Below are positions 2,716 to 12,357 of a stretch of 12,701 bases of DNA, piece by piece. The position numbers and the translations under genes were made by a program. The DNA is taken from positions 69,938 through 82,638 of IMG/VR virus record IMGVR_UViG_3300021399_000137. One strand, given 5' to 3'. Each line of letters begins with the position of its first letter. The first letter of the stretch is position 1. This stretch comes from a virus. Lineage: Duplodnaviria > Heunggongvirae > Uroviricota > Caudoviricetes. A model generated the notes under the pieces. That model worked only from the letters and a program-made list of their open reading frames with translations. It searched no databases and was not told where the DNA came from.

Positions 2716-4476
2716 TTATTGAACGTTTTTAATTTTTGGTTCATATTTTCTTGCAAACTCTAGTTCTTCTTCTGTTGCATCATATAAACCATCTTTTAAT
2801 GCCATTTTCATTAGTTTTTTAAATACTTCTTCCATCTCTTCATAAAATGGGTCTTCAGCTAAATCTTCATAGTCTTCTTCAGAAGCTTCATCTGGAATTC
2901 CAAAAGCTAACCAATAATTATAAAATAATTCTTCATCATTTACTTTTCTAGCAATGTTATCCATCATTTTTAATGTATTTATTTTTTCTTCTTCTGAGAT
3001 TTGCCTGAGACTTTTATCAGCTTCAGTTACAGTATCTTCTCCAGATTCACCAGAATCCTCTTTAGTATTAAATTCTTCTCCGTCTTTAATAACTTCACAT
3101 CTATCCAAATAGTCTTTATCTGCTTCTTCTTTAGACTCATAAATCTCAGCGTTTTCTATTTCACCCTCAGATAAATTATAGTTCTCACCTACTATATATC
3201 TAGTTCCCTCAGATTTATCTTCTAGCATATAAACGTTACCTTGTTCTTTAATTACTTGTAAATCTTTAACTTCTGTTTGAGCAGCTTCTACTACAGGTTT
3301 CTTTTCTATTTTTTCTGACTCTTCTAAATCATATTTATTAGCTATCATCTTCATTTGATTTTCAACTGTTTCTTCAAAATCATATACTATTTGTTTAGCT
3401 AAATTAGTACCAAAGTTTTCTACTTCTATAGTTCTTAATTGATATAATAGAGATTTCATATCAGAAATAAAATCTTCTGGGTATCCACCTAATCTTTCTG
3501 AATAGTCTTCTTTTAAAGATTTGTCACATCCTTCTTGTAATTCTTTTTCCAAATTAGCGATTTCATCTTCTATAGCAGCTTTCTCATCATCTGCTAATTG
3601 GTCACCGTCTTTTTCTAATTGAGTTTTAAGACTAGCTAATTTATCTTCTTTAGAAGTATCTATAGGAGCAGCTTCTTTTAATTGAGCAACTATAAATTTA
3701 TCAGACAGATTAATATCGTTGTTTGTATTTTTAATAAATTCATTTTTAAATTCATCTGCTTCAGACTTTGTTGGAAATCTAATAGCCTTTTCTTTTTCAT
3801 AAGCTGTAGTTTCATTGTCTATTACATATAAAGGACCTCTATCTGTTTTTATATAAATTATAAAATCTCCATTTTTAGCTTCATTAAGTTTTTTACAATT
3901 GCATTCAGCTAATGGTTTACCACACTCTTTACAGATTTCTTCTCCTTCAGAGTATAAACCTTTTTCTATACTGTCTGCTTTTGCATCTTCTATTTGTCCA
4001 TCTTCTAATTTTTTAATCATTTTTACTTCTCTTAAATCTTCTAACATTTTTCTTAATTCTTCTTTTCCATAGACAACATTATATACAGTACCTGTTTCAG
4101 TACCATCATCGTCTACTCCTACAAACTCCCAAACGTTACCTTCTTCAGCAGCTTGTTTAGCAGCTTCTAATTCTTCTGGGTCTCCACCATATTCTGACTT
4201 ATATCCTTCATCATAGTCTTCTGGATTTTGATAATTCTCAGAATATCTAACTACCATAGCTACACCATCTGGGTCTCTAAAATAAACTTCATCTCCTGAA
4301 ATTACACTATCTAAAGCTGAAGAGGCATCTTCTGTTAGAACATAATTCTTTTCTTCTTTTAATTCTTCTACCCTAACATCAGAACCTTCCATAAATACTT
4401 TTTTCTTAATTTGAATAGCTTTTGTTTCACTTTCATTAAGCTCATTCATTAAATTAAAACTAAGTTTGTTTAACAT
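2716..4476 (-). CDS. Acidic 586-aa modular protein; putative processed virion internal polyprotein containing a CxxC-x6-CxC motif
   Basis: ORF with AAGGAG RBS; motifs ELNE|S, VLTE|D, KLNE|A, QLKE|A, SLKE|D, DLEE|S, PVVE|A, TVTE|A; CKECGKPLAECNC at aa 182-194. Confidence 0.8.
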   Translation of the reverse strand: MLNKLSFNLMNELNESETKAIQIKKKVFMEGSDVRVEELKEEKNYVLTEDASSALDSVISGDEVYFRDPDGVAMVVRYSENYQNPEDYDEGYKSEYGGDPEELEAAKQAAEEGNVWEFVGVDDDGTETGTVYNVVYGKEELRKMLEDLREVKMIKKLEDGQIEDAKADSIEKGLYSEGEEICKECGKPLAECNCKKLNEAKNGDFIIYIKTDRGPLYVIDNETTAYEKEKAIRFPTKSEADEFKNEFIKNTNNDINLSDKFIVAQLKEAAPIDTSKEDKLASLKTQLEKDGDQLADDEKAAIEDEIANLEKELQEGCDKSLKEDYSERLGGYPEDFISDMKSLLYQLRTIEVENFGTNLAKQIVYDFEETVENQMKMIANKYDLEESEKIEKKPVVEAAQTEVKDLQVIKEQGNVYMLEDKSEGTRYIVGENYNLSEGEIENAEIYESKEEADKDYLDRCEVIKDGEEFNTKEDSGESGEDTVTEADKSLRQISEEEKINTLKMMDNIARKVNDEELFYNYWLAFGIPDEASEEDYEDLAEDPFYEEMEEVFKKLMKMALKDGLYDATEEELEFARKYEPKIKNVQ

Positions 4477-4494
4477 AATCTTAATTTCTCCTTT

Positions 4495-4770
4495 CTAAAC
4501 TTTTTCTAAAATCATTCCTACAGCTGTTTTTTCTTCTCCTTGTATAGATAATATGTCAAAATAAGGTTTTATTATAATGTCAAATCCTGAAGGTGTTGCT
4601 AAACCTCTAGCTGTAATTACAGCTTTTACAGCCTGATTTACTGCAGGAACTCCAACACATTTTAATTCTAGCTTATCTACGTTTTTAATATTAGCATAGA
4701 TGGCTGCAGCTAGTTTTTTAATGTCAGTATCTTTTCCTACTCTAAACTCTGGTATGTTCTTTACTTCCAT
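4495..4770 (-). CDS. spoVS: Stage V sporulation protein S (SpoVS) homologue
   Basis: CVGVPAVNQAVKAVITARGLATPSGFDIIIKPYFDILSIQGEEKTAVGMILE matches the SpoVS signature as I recall it from B. subtilis (AIGAGALNQAVKAVAIARGFVAPSGVDLICIPAFTDIQIDGEERTAIKLIV); length is typical; GGAGG RBS. Confidence 0.9.
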   Translation of the reverse strand: MEVKNIPEFRVGKDTDIKKLAAAIYANIKNVDKLELKCVGVPAVNQAVKAVITARGLATPSGFDIIIKPYFDILSIQGEEKTAVGMILEKV

Positions 4771-4825
4771 AATTACCTCCTAAATTACTATTTCTAGCTC
4801 CTAATATAATAAATAACTGAGATGT

Positions 4826-4856
4826 AAAAAGATACCAGAATTAATTCTGGTATCTT
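4826..4856 (-). terminator. Probable intrinsic terminator (perfect 28-bp palindrome) overlapping the stop codon of 4841..5518
   Basis: AAGATACCAGAA-TTAA-TTCTGGTATCTT at 4829-4856, ending in a run of five T on the minus strand. Confidence 0.65.
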
Positions 4857-5518
4857 CTATTTAAATCTAAAATAAAGTTAAATACTCTTAATTCAGTATT
4901 GTAGATAGGAGACTCCATAAAGTTATACATAGCAGTCTCTATAGAATTATATTTAGCTCTTTTATAATCTTCTATAATTCTTTTATACCATTTAGATATA
5001 TTATTACTAGGTATAGTAACTCTATTTAAGAAAGTTAATAAACTCATTTCTATATATTCAGCTCCTACTTTATCTAATAACTGTAAATAAGTTTTAGATA
5101 TAGTAATAGTGTCTGTATTAAAGCTTCTTAAAAATTCTAAGAAAGCACCAGTATTGTCGTACTCCTTCATTTGCCATTTACCTGTAATCCACATATATTC
5201 TATTTGTTCTCTAAAGGTATAATCGTCTAAATCTTGATAAAACTCTAATAAATATTTAGGAACTTTTCTTTTCCATTTAGAAAATACTACTTCTAATAAA
5301 GTTAATCTATCTGTTAAATCTATTTCACCTGCTGAAGATACTACTATATAATTTACTCCTAAAGCTTTAATCTTATTTAAATTTTTAGTATCTCCTATCC
5401 AAATAATATTTTTATCAGATGATATTACGGGTTTATCTAATATTCTATAATCAGGGTACATAAATTGTAACAAACCTATATCATCTATTTTTACACTATG
5501 ATTTATAATACTAATCAT
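4841..5518 (-). CDS. Hypothetical protein (225 aa)
   Basis: Clean ORF starting 4 nt after the helicase stop codon; alpha/beta N-terminal half and helical C-terminal half; no confident family. Confidence 0.75.
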   Translation of the reverse strand: MISIINHSVKIDDIGLLQFMYPDYRILDKPVISSDKNIIWIGDTKNLNKIKALGVNYIVVSSAGEIDLTDRLTLLEVVFSKWKRKVPKYLLEFYQDLDDYTFREQIEYMWITGKWQMKEYDNTGAFLEFLRSFNTDTITISKTYLQLLDKVGAEYIEMSLLTFLNRVTIPSNNISKWYKRIIEDYKRAKYNSIETAMYNFMESPIYNTELRVFNFILDLNRRYQN

Positions 5519-5521
5519 TCT

Positions 5522-7714
5522 CTACCCTTTCTTTATATTATTTCTTTTACAATAAGAAATTATTGTATTTTTATCTCTATTTAATTTTTCAGCTATTTTT
5601 TTATGAGATATATTATTAATATTATTTTTTATAAATTCTTTTTCTTCTTTTGTTAAATAGTTAATCTTCTTTTTATATTCTATATAGTTTAATCTACAAT
5701 AATTTCTTATTGTAGGTTCAGCTCTATTTAATTTCTCTGCTATTTCTTTAAGTATCATATTTTTAGCATTTTTCTTTATAAAGTCTTTTTCTTCTGATAA
5801 AAGTGGATAAGTCTTTTTTCTTATATTTTTAAATTCTATATTATTTCTATTACAATATTCTCTAATTGTACAGTCTGACCTATTTAGTTTTTTTGCTATT
5901 TCTTTAGGCATCATATTTTCAATATTTTTCTTTATAAAATCTTTTTCTTTTTTTGATAAAGGATTAAATTCTTTTTTATATTCTATATTATTTCTAATAC
6001 AATAATAAAGTATTGTATTTTTATCTCTAATTGTTGTTCCTGATTTATTTAATTTTTTAAATATTTCTTTAATAGTCATATTTTTAGCATTTTTCTTTAT
6101 AAAATCTTTTTCTTCTTCTGTAAAAATATTATACTTTTTTTTATACTTTATATTATTTTTTTTATAATAATATCTTATTGTTGCTATACCTCTATTTAAT
6201 TTTTTTGATATTTCTTTAGGTGTCATAATCATAGCATTTTTCTTTATAAAATCTTTTTCTTCTTCTGATAAAAAATAATATTCTTTTTTAAATTCTATAT
6301 TATTTCTATCACAATAATCTCTAATTGTAGATTCTGACCTACCTAATTTTAATACTATTTTACGTATAGTCATATTTTTAGCATTTTTTTCTATAAAATC
6401 TTTTTCTTCTTCTGATAAGTAATAAACTTCTTTTTTATACTTTATATTATTTCTTTTATAATAATTTCTTATAGTACGAGGTTTTTTATTTAATTTTTTT
6501 GCTATTTCTCTAGTTATCATAGTCATAGCATTTTCTTCTATAAATTTTTTTTCTTCTTCTGATAAATAAGTAAATGTATAAGTATTTTCTTTAATTATAT
6601 TTATTAAATCTTCTTGTCTTGTATAAATTTTTAATTCTTCTTTTTTCTTTCCTACTTTAATATTAGATATACTTATATTTCTTTTTTTAGCAAAATTTTC
6701 CCAAATAGATATATATCCATTATCTAAATTATATGCGTTATTAACTAAATCAAATACTATAGCATCTTCTTTATGTTCAGAAATCATTCTACCTAATTGT
6801 TGTTGATATATAATATTACTCTGTGTCTTTCTTAAAAATACAGCCACATCTATATTAGATAAATGTATACCTTCAGTAAACATATTTATAGAATATAATA
6901 TGTTTATTCCTTCTTTAGAATTATAAAAATCTTCTAACTCTTGATTATTAAACTTTTTAGATTTTTTAGAGTGCATTACAAAATGATTAATATCTTTATC
7001 TATCCATAATTCTATAAAATTTTTAGCTTGTTCTATATCATTAATTCTAGATACAAATACTATAATATGAAGAGGTTTACTATAATCTATAAATTCTTCA
7101 AATATATTTTTTACTTCAGTATTTATATCATAATTAGATAGTTTCTTTTGTAGAGCTTTATTTTTATAATATCTGTAATCTATCTCATAAATAGAAGAAA
7201 CGTATTTTATTTGAGGTAATATTCCTTGTTCTATGGACTCAGCTAAATATAAAGGCTCTATTTCTTCATTATTAAATATTAATTCTATAGGATTTTTACC
7301 ATCCATTCTTTCAGGAGTAGCACTAAATCCTATCATTTTACCTTTATAATCTTCTAAATCTTTCTTTAATATATTACCCCATTTTTCTGTAACTGACCTA
7401 TGCATTTCATCTAAAAATATATAATCATAATCTAATAAAGACTCATGATTAAAATTTTGTTTTAGTAAATTACTATATATTATAAAATCTGTATTATTAT
7501 AATTTCCAAATTCTTTAATATATTCAACAATATTATCTCTAGGTTCTATAATAAGTTTCTTTCCTGGAAGCTTATTACATAATTCCATTATAATATGAGA
7601 TTTACCAAAACCTACCGGTCTTACTACACCAAATTTATCACAAGTCTTTAATTTTTCTAATATTAAATCTTTAGTCTTTATTCTTTCTATAGATAGTAAA
7701 CTTTTATCAAACAT
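5522..7714 (-). CDS. SF2 DExH-box helicase/ATPase (type III restriction Res-like core) with seven C-terminal tandem HTH-like repeats
   Basis: Motif I RPVGFGKS, motif II FLDEMHR, motif III SATPER, motif V NMFTEGIHL, motif VI QQQLGR; repeats from aa 384 to 730; no nuclease motif seen. Confidence 0.9.
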   Translation of the reverse strand: MFDKSLLSIERIKTKDLILEKLKTCDKFGVVRPVGFGKSHIIMELCNKLPGKKLIIEPRDNIVEYIKEFGNYNNTDFIIYSNLLKQNFNHESLLDYDYIFLDEMHRSVTEKWGNILKKDLEDYKGKMIGFSATPERMDGKNPIELIFNNEEIEPLYLAESIEQGILPQIKYVSSIYEIDYRYYKNKALQKKLSNYDINTEVKNIFEEFIDYSKPLHIIVFVSRINDIEQAKNFIELWIDKDINHFVMHSKKSKKFNNQELEDFYNSKEGINILYSINMFTEGIHLSNIDVAVFLRKTQSNIIYQQQLGRMISEHKEDAIVFDLVNNAYNLDNGYISIWENFAKKRNISISNIKVGKKKEELKIYTRQEDLINIIKENTYTFTYLSEEEKKFIEENAMTMITREIAKKLNKKPRTIRNYYKRNNIKYKKEVYYLSEEEKDFIEKNAKNMTIRKIVLKLGRSESTIRDYCDRNNIEFKKEYYFLSEEEKDFIKKNAMIMTPKEISKKLNRGIATIRYYYKKNNIKYKKKYNIFTEEEKDFIKKNAKNMTIKEIFKKLNKSGTTIRDKNTILYYCIRNNIEYKKEFNPLSKKEKDFIKKNIENMMPKEIAKKLNRSDCTIREYCNRNNIEFKNIRKKTYPLLSEEKDFIKKNAKNMILKEIAEKLNRAEPTIRNYCRLNYIEYKKKINYLTKEEKEFIKNNINNISHKKIAEKLNRDKNTIISYCKRNNIKKG
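5525..6565 (-). repeat. Seven tandem ~49-aa (~147-nt) coding repeats, consensus LSEEEKDFIKKNAKNMTxKEIAKKLNRxxxTIRxYCxRNNIEYKK
   Basis: Repeats start at aa 384, 433, 482, 531, 586, 638 and 687 and are visible in both protein and DNA; three-helix (Myb/SANT-like HTH) pattern. Confidence 0.95.
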
Positions 7715-7745
7715 AGTTAATATCTCCTTAAAATTTTTTATTTAT

Positions 7746-7774
7746 ATTATATCATAAAAAATCATAAATGTAAA
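7746..7774 (-). promoter_or_regulatory. Sigma-A/sigma-70-type promoter for the helicase gene
   Basis: Minus strand reads TTTACA (7774-7769), a 17-nt spacer ending in TGA, then TATAAT (7751-7746): an extended -10 in the intergenic gap, upstream of an AAGGAG RBS. Confidence 0.75.
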
Positions 7775-7782
7775 TAAAAATT

Positions 7783-8115
7783 TTAGTATAATTCATATTC
7801 AAATATTCCAGGTATGTAGAATATACCTGAATAAAACATCTTTTCCCAGTTATGACTTAATTTTATTTCTCTAATATAATTACTATACTTTCCATCTAAA
7901 ATGTCACTGAATGAAATCTGATACTTACCAGCTATTAATATAATGTCATATCCTTTTTCATATACTGTAGCACTTATTGCATGAGTTTGTGTAGTAATAA
8001 TCTCTTCCTCATCTTTCTTTATAGCTTCTTTTAATGACTGTATTGTAAAGCAACATCTTAATATATCGTCTGCTGGTATATCTTTAGTTAAATAAACTCT
8101 AATTACTTTTTTCAT
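7783..8115 (-). CDS. Hypothetical protein (110 aa)
   Basis: ORF with a GGAGG RBS inside the upstream gene's 3' end (coupled overlap); no recognised family. Confidence 0.75.
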   Translation of the reverse strand: MKKVIRVYLTKDIPADDILRCCFTIQSLKEAIKKDEEEIITTQTHAISATVYEKGYDIILIAGKYQISFSDILDGKYSNYIREIKLSHNWEKMFYSGIFYIPGIFEYELY

Positions 8116-8647
8116 TTTTTTCTAATCCTCCTAAGATTTGTAAAATCTTATCTTTATTCTTTCTATATTCCATCATTTTATAATATATTGCTAAATTAGG
8201 ACAATGTTCTGCCATAAATTTATCTAATTCTACTCCAGAAATATCTCTATCATTAATGTAATCTAAAGCGTCTAGTATATCTATAAAGTCACATTTAAAA
8301 TCTAAATCTTTAGGATATTTAATACATGTTTTTATTCTGCTATGTAAAGATGATGAAATATTATCCTCTGATGCTAATAATATTAATGGTAACTTTATTT
8401 CTTCTACTAGCTTTAATAGTATAGTATCTCTATATAAAGCTGATATATCTTCTACAACTATAGGTTTATTATATTCTATGTTATAAAAATTAGTAATTAA
8501 TTCTTTAGCATCTTCAGTATTATAAATCTTATAGATGTTTCCTTTATAAATCATTTTAAATAAAGTCATAGCTCCACCTATTAATAGTACTGGAGTTTTA
8601 CCTTTTATATCTTTTAAAGTTTCATAAATATAATCTAGTTTAGTCAT
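8099..8647 (-). CDS. Degenerate AAA+ clamp-loader-like protein (DNA polymerase III delta-prime / RFC-small-like)
   Basis: Walker-B-like IVVEDIS, then LLKLVEE, LILLAS and SSLHSRIK, resembling the clamp-loader pattern LLKxLEE...FILxT...TIxSRC. No GKT Walker A (PVLLIGGAMT). AAGGAGG RBS. Confidence 0.55.
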   Translation of the reverse strand: MTKLDYIYETLKDIKGKTPVLLIGGAMTLFKMIYKGNIYKIYNTEDAKELITNFYNIEYNKPIVVEDISALYRDTILLKLVEEIKLPLILLASEDNISSSLHSRIKTCIKYPKDLDFKCDFIDILDALDYINDRDISGVELDKFMAEHCPNLAIYYKMMEYRKNKDKILQILGGLEKNEKSN

Positions 8648-8677
8648 ACTAAACCTCCTTTATATTTATTATGATGC

Positions 8678-8705
8678 AAAAAATAAGGAGGCTGTTACCT
8701 CCTTA
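8678..8705 (-). terminator. Intrinsic terminator
   Basis: Minus strand TAAGGAGG-TAACAG-CCTCCTTA followed by TTTTTT. Confidence 0.85.
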
Positions 8706-8775
8706 GCACAGACTCCATGTAGGAGTGCACCTCTATATCTAGCAGTGGAGGATAGTCCACTGTCGCTAGCTACTT
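8678..8775 (-). ncRNA. Candidate structured small RNA or cis-regulatory leader (two hairpins plus terminator)
   Basis: GC-rich intergenic island. Hairpin 8739-8769 (CTAG-CGA-CAGTGGA-loop-TCCACTG-CTAG), hairpin 8706-8728 (ACTCC/GGAGT core), then the terminator; TATAAT boxes upstream at 8786-8781 and 8796-8791. No known family recognised. Confidence 0.4.
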
Positions 8776-8791
8776 CTAATATTATATATAA

Positions 8792-9067
8792 TTATAATGC
8801 TAAATTAGTAAGATAGTCATCTAAATTTAATAATAAATCTACATCGTTTAAATCTTCTTCTTTAATGCCTAATTTAATTAATTCAGATTTTTCCCAATTT
8901 ATTCTGTCATCGTCGTCATCCCAAGCATTAGCATTTATCATTCGACTTATTTTATCTATTAAAGGTTTTAAATATTCAGGAATTTCTGTATTATTCCAAT
9001 CTACATTATTCATATCATTAACTAATTTGTCTATACTAATTTCTTTATTTAATATTATCTGACTCAT
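8792..9067 (-). CDS. Hypothetical acidic protein (91 aa); may be a frameshifted continuation of 9045..9347
   Basis: ORF with no clear SD sequence; its ATG lies 23 nt inside the upstream gene. Confidence 0.65.
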   Translation of the reverse strand: MSQIILNKEISIDKLVNDMNNVDWNNTEIPEYLKPLIDKISRMINANAWDDDDDRINWEKSELIKLGIKEEDLNDVDLLLNLDDYLTNLAL

Positions 9068-9347
9068 CTAAATACTCAGCATTATCTTCAAATGTAGTAG
9101 AAACTAAACTTTTAACTGTATCTAAATCGTCACCATCCATTTCACATTGGTCAAATACTGATTGAACTTCATTCTCTAAAACTCCATCTGGAATTTCGTT
9201 TATTAATTGTTGAATATCATCCATATCTTCACAACTATCTAGTCTTTGTGCAAAGTTTTCTGCATCCTCTATAGTAATAGACTCTTTTAAATTTTCTTCT
9301 TTTAAATTATTTTGTATACTTTCAAATAATTTTCTTGTTTCACTCAT
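9045..9347 (-). CDS. Leader-bearing, very acidic small protein (100 aa)
   Basis: N-terminus MSETRKLFESIQNNLKE; D/E-rich helical body; AAGGAGG RBS. Confidence 0.85.
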   Translation of the reverse strand: MSETRKLFESIQNNLKEENLKESITIEDAENFAQRLDSCEDMDDIQQLINEIPDGVLENEVQSVFDQCEMDGDDLDTVKSLVSTTFEDNAEYLDESDNIK

Positions 9348-9834
9348 TTTTATAAACCTCCTTAATTACTTTAGCAATTTTACAAATATATTCTTTTCTA
9401 TCTGATTTTATAATAAATTCATCGATAGATTTATCATATTCTTTTCCGATATATGCATTTACAAAGCTAGATATTACTAAATCTCTATCTAATTCTGGGT
9501 TGTCTAATAATGTTTGTCTACATACTAAAACTGAATAATCTAAATTATACGGACCTTTTAACTCTACAGGTTCTACCTCATAAAGATAATTATATTCTGA
9601 TTTATATTCATTAGCAATATTTATATCATTAGTTAAATATACTGCTCTAGATATAAATTTAATTCCTAAAGCTGTATTATATGCTAGTGCTATATCTTTA
9701 GGTATACTGTTTACATTTACAATTAAGTCACCTGGTTCATAGTGAGTACCATTACCACTATAAAATATATTGTTTGAGTTATCTTCGTTAAGGCTATTTT
9801 CTATACTTTCTAATAACTTTCTTGTTTCACTCAT
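9340..9834 (-). CDS. Leader-bearing ADP-ribosyltransferase-like protein (Arr / H-Y-E clade-like)
   Basis: Leader MSETRKLLESIENSLNE; IFYSGN...PGDLI (compare FYHGT...GDLL), AVYLTNDINIANEY, YLYEVEP, and a C-terminal strand KEYI...AKVIKEV. The canonical His is replaced by Ser. Confidence 0.55.
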   Translation of the reverse strand: MSETRKLLESIENSLNEDNSNNIFYSGNGTHYEPGDLIVNVNSIPKDIALAYNTALGIKFISRAVYLTNDINIANEYKSEYNYLYEVEPVELKGPYNLDYSVLVCRQTLLDNPELDRDLVISSFVNAYIGKEYDKSIDEFIIKSDRKEYICKIAKVIKEVYKNE

Positions 9835-9847
9835 AATTATTCCTCCT

Positions 9848-10093
9848 TTATCTTTCCAAATCTTCTTCTTTAGATTTAACTAATCCTCGTTCTAAAGCTT
9901 CTTTATATGGCATAGCATTAAAGTGAAAATGAGTTCCTTCTTTACTCCACATATCATAACTACTATCACCAGGATTAAATATGATATGGTCTATTTGTGG
10001 ATGTTGTCTAGTATCAGTTATGAATGTTAAATCATCTCCACCTATGTAATAATTTCTATCTCTTAAAAACTGTTGTATTTCCCAATCATACAT
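9848..10093 (-). CDS. Hypothetical protein (81 aa), no leader
   Basis: ORF with AAGGAG RBS; no recognised family. Confidence 0.75.
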   Translation of the reverse strand: MYDWEIQQFLRDRNYYIGGDDLTFITDTRQHPQIDHIIFNPGDSSYDMWSKEGTHFHFNAMPYKEALERGLVKSKEEDLER

Positions 10094-10113
10094 CTTTTGT
10101 TTCTCCTTATATT

Positions 10114-10341
10114 TTATTTTTCTCGATATTTAAACTTATCTTGATAGTTTTTATTAATCCAATATTGATTTAATACTTTACAGTTCTCTTCATAGTTTTC
10201 TAAAAACTTCATAGAGTCTATTAAAACATCTAGTTTTTCTAACGCACTTATTGGGTCTATAGACTCTTCTTTTAAAGCTTCACCTTCGTGTTGAAGTAAG
10301 CTTATTAATTTATCTATCATTAATTTCTTATTATCATCCAT
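10114..10341 (-). CDS. Hypothetical helical protein (75 aa), no leader
   Basis: ORF with AAAGGA RBS; no recognised family. Confidence 0.7.
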   Translation of the reverse strand: MDDNKKLMIDKLISLLQHEGEALKEESIDPISALEKLDVLIDSMKFLENYEENCKVLNQYWINKNYQDKFKYREK

Positions 10342-10362
10342 TTATACTAATCCTTTCAAAGT

Positions 10363-11379
10363 TTAATAAGTATTTATAGCTCCTGTATCAGCATAATAAT
10401 ATCCTTCAAAGTTTAAATCTCTACCAAAAGCTTCGTAATCAAAATGATTTTCAAAAAATCCATTGTCATTATCAGCAATAGCAGTTTGTATATCTTCATC
10501 TACCATAGCATCTAAAGTCTCTTCTGAATATTCTTCATCTACAGAGTCTAAATATTCTTCTATCCCTTCAGCTACAGAGTTTCTGTCAATATAATTTTCT
10601 TTATTAGATACGCCTTCAAAACCAACCATATCAACATAAGCTTTACCTAAATCTTCGTCATTATCTACTCCTGGAAAAAATATATAATCTCCACTTTCAT
10701 AAATGTTTAATGCTTCTTCAAAGTTATCATTGTGCTCTTCAAATATAGCTAAGAAAGCGTCTTTATTATTAATATCCTCTAATTTTTCTAATTGTTCTAT
10801 TATTTCCCAAGGGTTATCATATTCATCTACACTAATAGGACAATTTTCAGTATCATTTATAAAAGGTTCTTCGTCTTTATGAGCTTCTAAAAATTCTTTA
10901 GCTTGGTCTACAGACATCCAACCACCATTTATAGACTCTACATCTGCGCCATTAATATTATAATTACCCCAAGTATTCATATATAGTTGAATATTATTAA
11001 AATCTTCATCTTCATGTAAATGTTTTTCAGGTTTAACTATAGATGACTCTTTAACAATTCTATCTTTATTTATTATCTTTTCTAATACTTCATTTATATT
11101 AGTATTAGTAATTATTTTTTCTTGGTCTGCAGGAGTTAAAGCTTGATAACCTCCATCTTTACCACTAGCTATTATAGTAGTCCATTTCCAATCTTGACCA
11201 AAATCAAAATAAGTGTTTTGAACTGAATAAGAATGCTTCAATCCACTTCTATTTAATTTAATACAAAAATCTTTTAAGCGTTTAAACTCTAAGCTGTCTT
11301 CAGGAAATACTCTAATAAATTCAGAGTTTTCATTTAAATTTCTTTGGAAACTTTCAAATAATTTTTTAGTATTTGACAT
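10363..11379 (-). CDS. ardA: Leader + unknown domain + ArdA anti-restriction (type I RM DNA-mimic) domain
   Basis: IQLYMNTWGNYN (ArdA VYIANLGKYN), EEPFINDTENCPISVDEYDN (EEYAIHDYELPFTVDEY) and NHFDYEAFGRDLNFEGYY (NYIDYQAYGRDLDLSG) match ArdA motifs from aa ~124 to 338; strongly acidic; leader MSNTKKLFESFQRNLNE. Confidence 0.85.
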   Translation of the reverse strand: MSNTKKLFESFQRNLNENSEFIRVFPEDSLEFKRLKDFCIKLNRSGLKHSYSVQNTYFDFGQDWKWTTIIASGKDGGYQALTPADQEKIITNTNINEVLEKIINKDRIVKESSIVKPEKHLHEDEDFNNIQLYMNTWGNYNINGADVESINGGWMSVDQAKEFLEAHKDEEPFINDTENCPISVDEYDNPWEIIEQLEKLEDINNKDAFLAIFEEHNDNFEEALNIYESGDYIFFPGVDNDEDLGKAYVDMVGFEGVSNKENYIDRNSVAEGIEEYLDSVDEEYSEETLDAMVDEDIQTAIADNDNGFFENHFDYEAFGRDLNFEGYYYADTGAINTY

Positions 11380-11381
11380 CT

Positions 11382-11825
11382 TTATACCTCCTTATATATA
11401 ATTCCATTCATTCCTATAGTAACATCTAATCTATCTCCTTCTGAATTTTCTCCAAAAGCTTCTTCATTTTTATATGTAGGAGTAAATCCTTTAGATAACA
11501 TTTCATCTGATATACAGACTCCTTTATACTCCTTAGGAGTTCCTACTTTAAAAATATTACTATGGTCTATTACTTTATTATTAATTACATTCCAAAAATG
11601 TGGTTGATATGAACCGTCTTCTAAAACTACTTTACCACCATAAATTTTTTCAGCATCGTTCTCTGAATATGCTTTAAAAGCATTTATTTTACAAGCATCA
11701 GTTCTAGGATTATAATTTTTACCCTTTTCAAATTCAGTAAAACTTTCAGCATTATTTGGAAGATTTATATCTTCATTAAGATTATTTTGTATACTTTCTA
11801 ATAATTTCATTGTATCATTTTTCAT
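11382..11825 (-). CDS. Leader-bearing papain/transglutaminase-fold-like protein (putative Cys-His-Asp triad)
   Basis: Leader MKNDTMKLLESIQNNLNE; DAC45KINA, YGG, QPH76FWNV and VID87 fit the C-x2-N...H-x-W...D pattern. Confidence 0.5.
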   Translation of the reverse strand: MKNDTMKLLESIQNNLNEDINLPNNAESFTEFEKGKNYNPRTDACKINAFKAYSENDAEKIYGGKVVLEDGSYQPHFWNVINNKVIDHSNIFKVGTPKEYKGVCISDEMLSKGFTPTYKNEEAFGENSEGDRLDVTIGMNGIIYKEV

Positions 11826-11838
11826 AATATCCTCCTTT

Positions 11839-12357
11839 TTAAATTTCTTCTACTTTTCCTTTAATATCTTTATTATTGTTAATTAAATTAATTAAATCAT
11901 GTTCAGCATTATCTTTATCAGAATAAACTTTAGCGTTATCTCTATTAACTATTGATTTATCATCACTTAGATAACCCTCTTCATTTGTAGATAAATTAGA
12001 TGCATATACTATATATTTATTTTCTACGTCTATAAATGTAGATTTATCAAAATCATTTTTTAATTTTTTAATTGTACTATAAATATCATTAGATTTTTCT
12101 ACACTTAAATGTATACTAGGTCCATTCATATTTCCTTTATTAGTATGTAAAACTGTTCCTTTATCTTTTTTAGTATCTAATTTAACATATTTTCCTGCGT
12201 CTGTAATCCATAGGTCGGCATTATCATAACTTACTGATATAGATTTAGCAGTTTGTTTAGCATTTTTATCAAATATAGATTTTACTGCATTTAAAAGTTC
12301 ACTTTCATTTAAATTAGATTGTATACTTTCTAACAGTTTTATTGTATCATTTTTCAT
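11839..12357 (-). CDS. Leader-bearing hypothetical protein (172 aa)
   Basis: Leader MKNDTIKLLESIQSNLNE; AAGGAG RBS; C-terminal module ending NAKVYSDKDNAE. Confidence 0.8.
   Translation of the reverse strand: MKNDTIKLLESIQSNLNESELLNAVKSIFDKNAKQTAKSISVSYDNADLWITDAGKYVKLDTKKDKGTVLHTNKGNMNGPSIHLSVEKSNDIYSTIKKLKNDFDKSTFIDVENKYIVYASNLSTNEEGYLSDDKSIVNRDNAKVYSDKDNAEHDLINLINNNKDIKGKVEEI

Follow-up and report, generated by a model that had tools for sequence, protein, structure and literature searches.

The stretch of viral DNA considered here, which we call the window, comprises the final 12.7 kb (12,701 nucleotides) of an 82.6-kb IMG/VR virus record (IMGVR_UViG_3300021399_000137, completeness estimated at 65%); its G+C content is about 26% and every gene in it lies on the minus strand. 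At 5522–7714 it carries an open reading frame (ORF) of 730 amino acids, uninterrupted by stops and with no in-frame CGG codons, whose product (P0001) joins a motif-complete superfamily 2 (SF2) ATPase (residues 1–330) through a linker (residues 331–383) to seven repeats of about 49 amino acids (residues 384–730) that are predicted to be helix-turn-helix (HTH) modules. Judged from alignments of its homologues, the motor and the array have separate histories, and the linker is the recombination junction between them. As to function, we hold with middling confidence that P0001 is a lineage-conserved, probably early, replication or recombination motor and that its basic HTH array keeps it on DNA through multivalent binding.

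The motor (6725–7714) was delimited by Pfam and PHROG profiles, by an AlphaFold2 (AF2) model and by Foldseek, and its two RecA-like domains and motifs I, II, III and VI are those of an SF2 protein, in agreement with the original prediction of an SF2 helicase. When conservation was scored on an alignment of 36 homologues, the motifs proved invariant or nearly so: motif I, or Walker A, reads G35-F-G37-K38-S39 (7598–7612; G37 and K38 invariant, G35 nearly); motif II is a DExH box, DEMH, at residues 102–105 (7400–7411; E103 and H105 invariant, D102 present in at least 90%); motif III is SAT at residues 131–133 (7316–7324; A132 and T133 invariant); and motif VI is QQLGR at residues 305–309 (6788–6802; Q305, Q306, G308 and R309 invariant), with the second Arg of the usual QxxGRxxR replaced by Ser both in P0001 and in the family consensus. 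Pfam Helicase_C matches at 4e-10, with DEAD below threshold, and phrog_16 ("DNA helicase") at 2.8e-26. The AF2 model has a mean predicted local distance difference test (pLDDT) score of 84, the motor lying mostly at 85–95, and when searched with Foldseek against the PDB it retrieves SauUSI (7clg), RadD, the type ISP enzyme LlaBIII, XPB and T4 UvsW at about 1e-10 to 1e-11. Sequence searches agree, phmmer matching SauUSI 7clg at 4e-12 and archaeal XPB at 2e-4, and PADLOC recognising a SauUSI-type ATPase core (mREase_IV, 1e-13) over residues 86–326. Walker A begins at residue 35, and there is therefore no extra N-terminal domain; Pfam, PADLOC and NCBIfam found no nuclease domain in P0001, as had been predicted. 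On profile and model evidence, the core is a putative double-stranded DNA (dsDNA) translocase-type SF2 motor without a nuclease, of the XPB/RadD/SauUSI-like branch. Its isoelectric point (pI) is 5.7, and codon comparisons with L051 and L052, the two truncated metagenome loci on which the codon tests rest, show purifying selection on it, the ratio of non-synonymous to synonymous rates (dN/dS) being 0.15–0.18.

Several more specific identities for this motor were considered. The label "type III-Res-like", also part of the original prediction, was not sustained: it reflects a generic Pfam ResIII/DEAD N-terminal domain, for ResIII P0001 yields no match at E≤1 although relatives do, and the nearest cores are those of SauUSI, RadD, XPB and phage replication helicases. 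A type III Res subunit was rejected given the lack of a nuclease domain, a C-terminus that is all HTH, and no methyltransferase in the window. A SauUSI-type type IV restriction enzyme was likewise rejected, as just the ATPase core aligns (query 86–327 to 7clg 326–561) and the position of Walker A leaves no room for the N-terminal phospholipase D-like (PLD) nuclease of such enzymes. Identity with T4 UvsW is unsupported: the UvsW structure 2oca ranks fourteenth in Foldseek (3e-10, TM 0.16–0.23) as one among many equals, phmmer between P0001 and UvsW returns nothing at E<0.01, and the UvsW-type N-terminal double-wing domain is absent from P0001. A Helicase_C family search of the complete relatives detected no UvsW-type helicase; their sole other Helicase_C protein is a 514-amino-acid SNF2/Rad54-type ATPase (1z63, 7e-11), located at L050:1216–2760 on the minus strand of complete relative G001 and with a counterpart, L047, in G002. 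A UvsW-like role for P0001 is therefore conceivable.

The array occupies 5525–6565, with repeats starting at residues 384, 433, 482, 531, 586, 638 and 687, and the claim of seven tandem repeats in this interval is borne out by the translation, by these starts and by Tandem Repeats Finder (TRF), which scores a period of 147 nucleotides at 537 and one of 294 at 746. Repeats 1 and 3, and likewise 2 and 4, are 82–83% identical in nucleotide sequence, and the longer period arises because a two-repeat unit was duplicated. The tetrads between KL[NG] and TI vary exactly as described, and the residue after TIR varies as listed, except that repeat 4 carries a six-residue duplication and repeat 7 reads TII rather than TIR. 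From the N-terminal side (tetrad, then the residue at the place following TIR), the repeats are repeat 1 (residues 384–432, 6419–6565; KKPR, N), whose AF2 helices span 386–395, 401–407 and 412–421; repeat 2 (433–481, 6272–6418; RSES, D), placed by repeat alignment and AF2; repeat 3 (482–530, 6125–6271; RGIA, Y), a paralogue of repeat 1 at 83% nucleotide identity; repeat 4 (531–585, 5960–6124; KSGT), a hybrid with its duplication inside helix 3; repeat 5 (586–637, 5804–5959; RSDC, E), whose linker is longer by three residues; repeat 6 (638–686, 5657–5803; RAEP, N); and the C-terminal repeat 7 (687–730, 5525–5656; RDKN, S), the last two being conserved in homologues P0002 and P0003. The insertion in repeat 4 reads TIR-DKNTIL-YY, its RDKNTI being identical to the corresponding segment of repeat 7, and it looks like a trace left by slippage between repeats or by gene conversion.

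The repeats pass the Pfam cut-offs of HTH_17 (4.6e-14), Sigma70_r4_2 (2.3e-12), HTH_23 (1.1e-11), HTH_38 (8.2e-11) and HTH_11, and PHROG "HNH endonuclease" families 8446 and 1891 match them as well. AF2 renders each repeat as a three-helix bundle at a pLDDT of about 90 (91 for a two-repeat model), the orientation between repeats being of low confidence (predicted TM score 0.52–0.54) and the linker geometry not reliable. By VIA-align a single repeat superposes on the GcrA DNA-binding domain, the Tc3 HTH, R3-MYB and a resolvase HTH (Z 5.7–6.6, root-mean-square deviation 1.3–2.4 Å), and two repeats on Tc3, Reb1, Cbp2 and R2R3 Myb; Foldseek gave no PDB match to the two-repeat model at E<0.1, its top-listed entries being DUX4 double homeodomains, Cbp2 (2lvs) and Tc3. 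A two-repeat profile run against the PDB found Cbp2 (2lvs) best at 1.7e-3, followed by the Even-skipped homeodomain at 3.6e-3. An array-only search of 1.84 billion representative sequences recovered 614 proteins at E≤1e-3 with the consensus W-T-x-E-E..L..N.......E-I-A..L.R....I, and among the 70 that are at least 400 residues long, Myb_DNA-binding was found in 24, GcrA in 22 and Helicase_C in 11. The second-best match (9e-31), P0052, is another SF2 helicase, and its nine repeats, nearly identical to one another, match PF00249 Myb_DNA-binding at 2e-41. P0001 does not match PF00249 (Myb/SANT), and the positions of the Myb tryptophans hold L/F, F and Y; nor does it match PF07453 (NUMOD1), for which the distant array-bearing L007 stays below threshold (3.9e-4; its 21 bits fall short of the 22.8 required). 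Taken together, the profile matches, the structural matches and P0052 therefore indicate a Myb/homeodomain-like HTH in which the tryptophans have been replaced, so the predicted three-helix, HTH/Myb-like character of the repeats is upheld by Pfam, AF2, VIA-align and profile searches alike, and the repeats are best described as tri-helical, putatively DNA-binding modules. The array has a pI of 9.8 (91 K+R against 49 D+E), there is a conserved EEE patch of acidic residues on helix 1 and a KYKK patch in the linkers between repeats, and the coding DNA of the array, at 17.8% GC, is the minimum of the window.

P0052 is a distant metagenomic protein of 807 amino acids, and its 47-residue Myb-like repeats (PWTQEEDxFLKQNY...EIAEHLGR...) differ from one another mainly at helix-3 positions 1–3 and 5–6, a pattern more like that of transcription activator-like effectors (TALEs) than the one seen in P0001.

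Variability within the repeats is strongly localised. Across 155 repeats from 32 homologues, column entropy is highest at helix-3 positions 1 and 2 (3.8 bits), followed by positions 6, 5 and 9, and positions 1, 2, 5, 6 and 9 together make up one helix face. Helix 2 varies too, at its start, and the exposed face of helix 1 is far more conserved. In a HMMER alignment to Even-skipped, the variable columns fall on homeodomain positions 46, 47 and 50 and a conserved R/K on Asn51, so that the entropies and the alignment together support the claim that the varying residues lie on what would be the DNA-facing side of helix 3; judged by these columns, the variability of helix 3 is not due to chance. 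The variable columns presumably also coincide with c-Myb K128, E132, N179, K182, N183 and N186, in an alignment made by eye through P0052. Those c-Myb residues are the ones that recognise bases (PMC3203581).

Between P0001 and P0002, 9% of core positions differ, compared with 44% of the recognition face (16/36) and 22% of other repeat positions (53/237; Fisher p=0.007), and helix-3 position 2 is changed in all six orthologous repeats. Between the window and L051 the Nei–Gojobori dN/dS is 0.53 for the whole array, about 4.3 for the recognition face and 0.40 for the remaining columns; the value of 4.3 comes from 9.3 non-synonymous against 0.7 synonymous changes and is suggestive, not being significant against neutrality. 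The paralogous repeats within P0001 have non-synonymous and synonymous differences per site (pN and pS) of 0.54 and 0.37 on the face (ratio 1.46) and of 0.19 and 0.30 elsewhere (0.63). In the sub-lineage of P0013, P0015–17, P0019 and P0020 it is the motor that has diverged more, with 12.2% of its columns variable compared with 3.6% for the array (p=3.5e-4). None of 30 recognition-face positions has changed there, and this one array type differs at only 1.6% of its other positions across motors that are 9.6% apart. The anticipated non-synonymous excess at the variable positions is thus seen in the window's sub-lineage, on some ten substitutions, and is absent in another. Since the face is unchanged within one type and divergent between others, it is constrained within an array type and differs between types.

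The same homologues reveal how loosely arrays are bound to their motors. Repeat number ranges from 1 to 8, in keeping with the variation that had been expected, and it differs even among near-identical cores (two in P0003, four in P0004 and seven in P0001; seven in P0027, six in P0025 and four in P0026). In 43 pairs whose cores are more than 85% identical, array identity is bimodal, exceeding 0.9 in 16 pairs and falling below 0.5 in 18, and core identity is overall a poor guide to array identity (rank correlation 0.17). Unrelated arrays are carried by motors only 0.6–3% apart: P0025 and P0027 differ at 2 of 335 core residues but at 34% of other repeat columns and 67% of the recognition face; P0005 and P0009 at 3% of the core and 77–83% of the array; P0024 and P0028 at 2% and 69–76%; and P0022 and P0031 at 2.7% and 67–100%. 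The breakpoint lies each time in the linker (6566–6724), which in the AF2 secondary structure consists of a helix, a beta hairpin and a second helix ending in ...LKIYTRQEDLINII. Identity collapses at residues ~363–390 in seven independent pairs, at the end of the linker helix (...LKI.T.Q.DLI..L) and just before repeat 1. Conversely, P0022 and P0026, whose cores are merely 56% identical, each have the other as their best array match (identity 0.50), and the synonymous divergence (dS) between the window and L052 is 0.52 for the array and 0.23 for the core. Inside each protein the scaffold is homogenised among repeats, the signature of concerted evolution. The mismatch between core and array, the breakpoints at the linker and the retention of an array type across motors therefore point to the array as an exchangeable cassette that is under selection.

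What such a protein may do is best approached from its motor and its conservation. In the mechanism we favour, P0001 would be an ATP-driven helicase or dsDNA translocase of the same broad family as the array-less replication and recombination helicases of siphophages, held on duplex DNA by seven basic Myb/homeodomain-like modules. The array would bind DNA multivalently, perhaps with some sequence preference contributed by the helix-3 face, and would position or retain the motor, which could then unwind or pump the neighbouring DNA during replication initiation or the remodelling of forks or recombination intermediates; exchange of array cassettes between co-infecting relatives would alter where, or how tightly, the motor is anchored. 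A homologue is present in every complete relative examined, and the complete 129-kb and 132-kb relatives conserve together the helicase, a 182-amino-acid gene, a 225-amino-acid gene and a SpoVS homologue, with an ATP-dependent DNA ligase and a metallophosphoesterase interspersed among them and FolD upstream. Lactobacillus phage A2, which encodes an array-less relative, has the gene order Gam, Sak4, helicase, SSB, primase and ori, and core-only relatives of about 30% identity number more than 426 in Firmicutes genomes, where they probably sit in prophages.

Expression of P0001 is probably early in infection. Its ATG is preceded at a distance of 9 nucleotides by a Shine–Dalgarno sequence, AAGGAG (7724–7729, minus strand, read directly from the upstream sequence), and directly upstream of the gene lies a putative promoter at 7746–7774 (minus strand), TTTACA, 17 nucleotides and TG-TATAAT, with 11 of 12 matches to the sigma-70 consensus and an extended –10 element. 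This is the top-scoring promoter-like site within 4400–9100; the number of such sites does not exceed the shuffled expectation in the AT-rich DNA of the window, so the site is only suggestive.

Several observations weigh against a replication tether. The neighbours of the gene in the window are uncharacterised, and the genes upstream are of the capsid-cargo and anti-restriction kind rather than replication genes. Acidic residues are frequent at helix-3 positions 1 and 2, which is unusual for a purely non-specific DNA clamp, and an exchange of cassettes by phages that are otherwise near-identical would more typically be seen for a specificity determinant than for a housekeeping tether. At Z<7 and Foldseek E>0.1, the structural resemblance of the repeats is of a kind that small helical domains commonly show, and it does no more than corroborate the profile matches. 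Finally, neither the 82.6-kb record nor the complete 129-kb relative yielded, in TRF scans, an iteron-like array that matches the copy number.

These scans did return some repeats of other kinds. In the record a single iteron-like repeat was seen in non-coding DNA, at G000:C1:61473–61538 and therefore outside the window: a 21-bp unit present three times with 84% matches in a stretch of about 470 bp without an ORF of at least 80 amino acids. The complete relative has an AT-rich tandem repeat of about 20 bp (AATATAAATAATATAA.TA, 2.5 copies) at G001:C1:71448–71506 and again at 128772–128830, the first occurrence lying upstream of the helicase gene by about 3 kb and the second near the contig end. 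The 147-bp-periodic DNA that encodes the array might itself be what the array binds, but this is disfavoured, there being no reduction of synonymous divergence in it.

A more ambitious interpretation, whose core was already proposed in the original prediction, is that the array is a programmable reader, each repeat recognising its own sub-site through helix-3 positions 1, 2, 5, 6 and 9, so that the array as a whole would direct the translocase to a long composite site and phages would re-target a conserved motor by swapping whole arrays at a fixed linker junction, with a logic like that of HsdS or target recognition domain (TRD) swapping or of TALEs. We consider this unlikely but worth taking seriously. 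The placement of the variability on the face aligned to homeodomain positions 46, 47 and 50, the excess of face over scaffold changes between P0001 and P0002 with position 2 altered in every repeat compared, the elevated face ratios against L051 and among paralogues, and the tendency of the nine P0052 repeats to differ mainly at the same positions are all in its favour, and strict retention of the face within one array type is what would be expected if the face matters. Because the face is conserved within types and whole arrays are exchanged, the idea stays alive. Against it, the TRF scans found no target, the dN/dS above 1 falls short of significance, exposed helix N-termini vary in many proteins (and the helix-2 start and the scaffold vary here too), and there is no evidence that one repeat corresponds to one sub-site or that the array has a single long, specific site as its target. 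A variant in which reader and site travel together, as lambda O does with its ori, is disfavoured because the dS of the array (0.25) is not below that of the motor (0.15).

Rapid turnover of the array, with cassettes exchanged among near-identical phages, could also reflect an arms race, in which the array would target host or competitor DNA or a component of a defence system and the motor would displace proteins or remodel that DNA, in the service of anti-defence, of taking over the host or of excluding related phages. The gene adjoins capsid-targeted cargo and ArdA genes in the window, has an early-looking putative promoter upstream, and encodes a motor similar to the ATPase of SauUSI, a type IV restriction enzyme. 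We nevertheless regard such a conflict factor as improbable: the gene is conserved lineage-wide with a strongly constrained motor, one array type has been stable over 10% motor divergence, there is no nuclease or other effector domain and PADLOC gives generic HTH and ATPase-core matches only, and the neighbours in relatives (ligase, phosphoesterase and FolD) are not of a defence type. The suggestion of a defence or anti-defence role in the original prediction consequently finds no positive support, as the gene persists throughout the lineage beside ligase and replication-type genes in relatives.

It is harder still to credit a role in transcription, in which an XPB-like translocase anchored at promoters by the array would remodel them or act with the host RNA polymerase (RNAP) in place of a MotA-type activator. 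XPB and TFIIH chains rank high in the structural search, matches to the repeats include sigma-70 region 4, GerE and GcrA-type HTHs and phrog_323 ("transcriptional regulator"), and RNAP-associated Rad25-like helicases have been proposed in jumbo phages (PMC7824862). However, RadD, SauUSI and UvsW score equally well in the same structural search, the locus has neither an RNAP-interaction motif nor a co-conserved sigma-like neighbour, and no recurrent promoter-associated motif was identified. That the array serves as a scaffold for protein or RNA, or as a means of oligomerisation, rather than binding DNA is very improbable, for although the EEE patch of helix 1 and the KYKK patch of the linkers could pair, the array has a strongly basic character, the HTHs most closely related to it all bind DNA and its variable face is the DNA-contact face of homeodomains and Myb. 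In sum, the observation made in the original prediction is confirmed and its interpretation is partly supported.

The surroundings of the gene add little to a functional assignment. The 225-amino-acid gene (4841–5518, minus strand) starts 3 nucleotides past the helicase stop and is 35–38% identical to ORFs of L002 and L003, and it is not always adjacent to the helicase in relatives; the 182-amino-acid gene (8099–8647, minus strand) is conserved with the helicase in relatives. Neither protein has a Pfam, PHROG or NCBIfam match. Faint Atlas leads (overall scores 0.80–0.88) liken the former to a clamp-loader lid or RFC_C and the latter to an AAA ATPase (0.82–0.88), and an LLKLVEE...SRI stretch in the 182-amino-acid protein resembles a delta-prime motif, by eye only. 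That the two proteins are degenerate clamp-loader subunits was considered, with these faint leads in its support and no family match; Gp44_lid was not found in three genomes, in a search whose control likewise failed everywhere. The SpoVS homologue (4495–4770, minus strand; Pfam SpoVS 1.1e-21, phrog_35646) is 58–64% identical in two complete relatives, always just downstream of the 225-amino-acid gene. The sole terminator-like hairpin of the region (8684–8705, minus strand) stands between the cargo-gene block and the 182-amino-acid gene, and at 9045–12357 (minus strand) several adjacent, otherwise unrelated ORFs share a leader of the form M-[SK]-x-[TD]-x-K-L-[FL]-E-S-I-[QE]-N-x-L-[NK]-E. A full-length homologue of P0001 with 37% identity occurs on the 132.5-kb contig L060 (JAFQXM010000001.1), binned in a goat-duodenum "Bacilli" metagenome-assembled genome, a weak hint at the host or a binning artefact.

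How much the arrangement matters depends on what the array does. If it is a tether only, P0001 is another phage helicase with an acquired DNA anchor, and the main use of the analysis is annotation, with hundreds of metagenomic "helicase" or "transcriptional regulator" calls that could be better described. If the helix-3 face does set specificity, a near-identical scaffold with few hypervariable positions and exchange of whole arrays would make a tractable natural system, offering a route to a recognition code of the Myb/homeodomain type and to steering a DNA translocase. The decoupled histories also offer a comparative handle, since what the array recognises can be sought in phage pairs for which the array is nearly the sole difference.

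With respect to what has been described before, megablast found no close relative among GenBank phages and tblastn matches the core alone, at less than 30% identity; a literature search found no paper on this architecture or on a phage helicase with tandem HTH repeats, and the nearest described designs are the Pfam HA-domain helicases and UL9 of herpes simplex virus (HSV). The HA-domain (PF03457) SF2 helicases belong to the same clade and tree as P0001, with core identities of 31–32%, and like it combine a compact ResIII/Helicase_C core with a variable number (1–11) of small three-helix modules. HA repeats, however, are about 64–70 residues long, compared with 49 in P0001, and in a tree of 73 cores the HTH-bearing proteins form their own well-supported clades, one of 27 rows (Shimodaira–Hasegawa-like approximate likelihood ratio test, SH-aLRT, 99) and one of 8 (SH-aLRT 98), the other clades carrying 1–11 Pfam HA domains or other tails. 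Equating the HTH repeat with the HA domain was rejected, since hhalign against the seven-HA array of L025 gives a probability of 0.2% and the HA profile matches no HTH-bearing member. A nuclear magnetic resonance structure of the HA domain reportedly suggests that it binds DNA (Mills 2013, cited in PMC12191111). The array-less siphophage helicases (Lactobacillus phage A2 ORF33 and those of S. thermophilus phages) are 24–27% identical to P0001 over about 300 residues of core and have a DNA-metabolism context, but they lack the HTH array and come from a different type of phage.

Among solved structures, SauUSI (7clg) and the type ISP enzyme LlaBIII (4xqk) are the best matches to the motor and share with P0001 the logic of a recognition module placed C-terminal to a dsDNA translocase. 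In contrast to both, P0001 lacks a methyltransferase and any nuclease of the PLD or Mrr kind, the HTH array takes the place of the SRA-like or TRD domain, and the protein is phage-encoded and conserved as a lineage gene. The repeats themselves share their fold and a period of about 50 residues with c-Myb R2R3, the Tc3 bipartite domain, DUX4 and the archaeal CRISPR-repeat-binding proteins Cbp1 and Cbp2, of which Cbp2 is also the best PDB profile match, but P0001 has seven copies where these tandem tri-helical readers have two or three, its array is fused to a motor, and it reads L/F-S/T-E-E-E-K-x-F-I where Myb has W-T-x-E-E-D. HSV-1 UL9, a viral SF2 helicase whose C-terminal sequence-specific DNA-binding domain anchors it at the origin (PMC12543377), provides the closest functional analogy for a tethered motor, although its DNA-binding domain is unrelated to the array of P0001 and is not repetitive. 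With TALE arrays, finally, the array has in common a near-identical scaffold with few hypervariable positions, a variable copy number and concerted evolution, and it departs from them in its fold, in varying at five or six positions rather than at a di-residue, and in that a one-repeat-one-base code is without evidence here.

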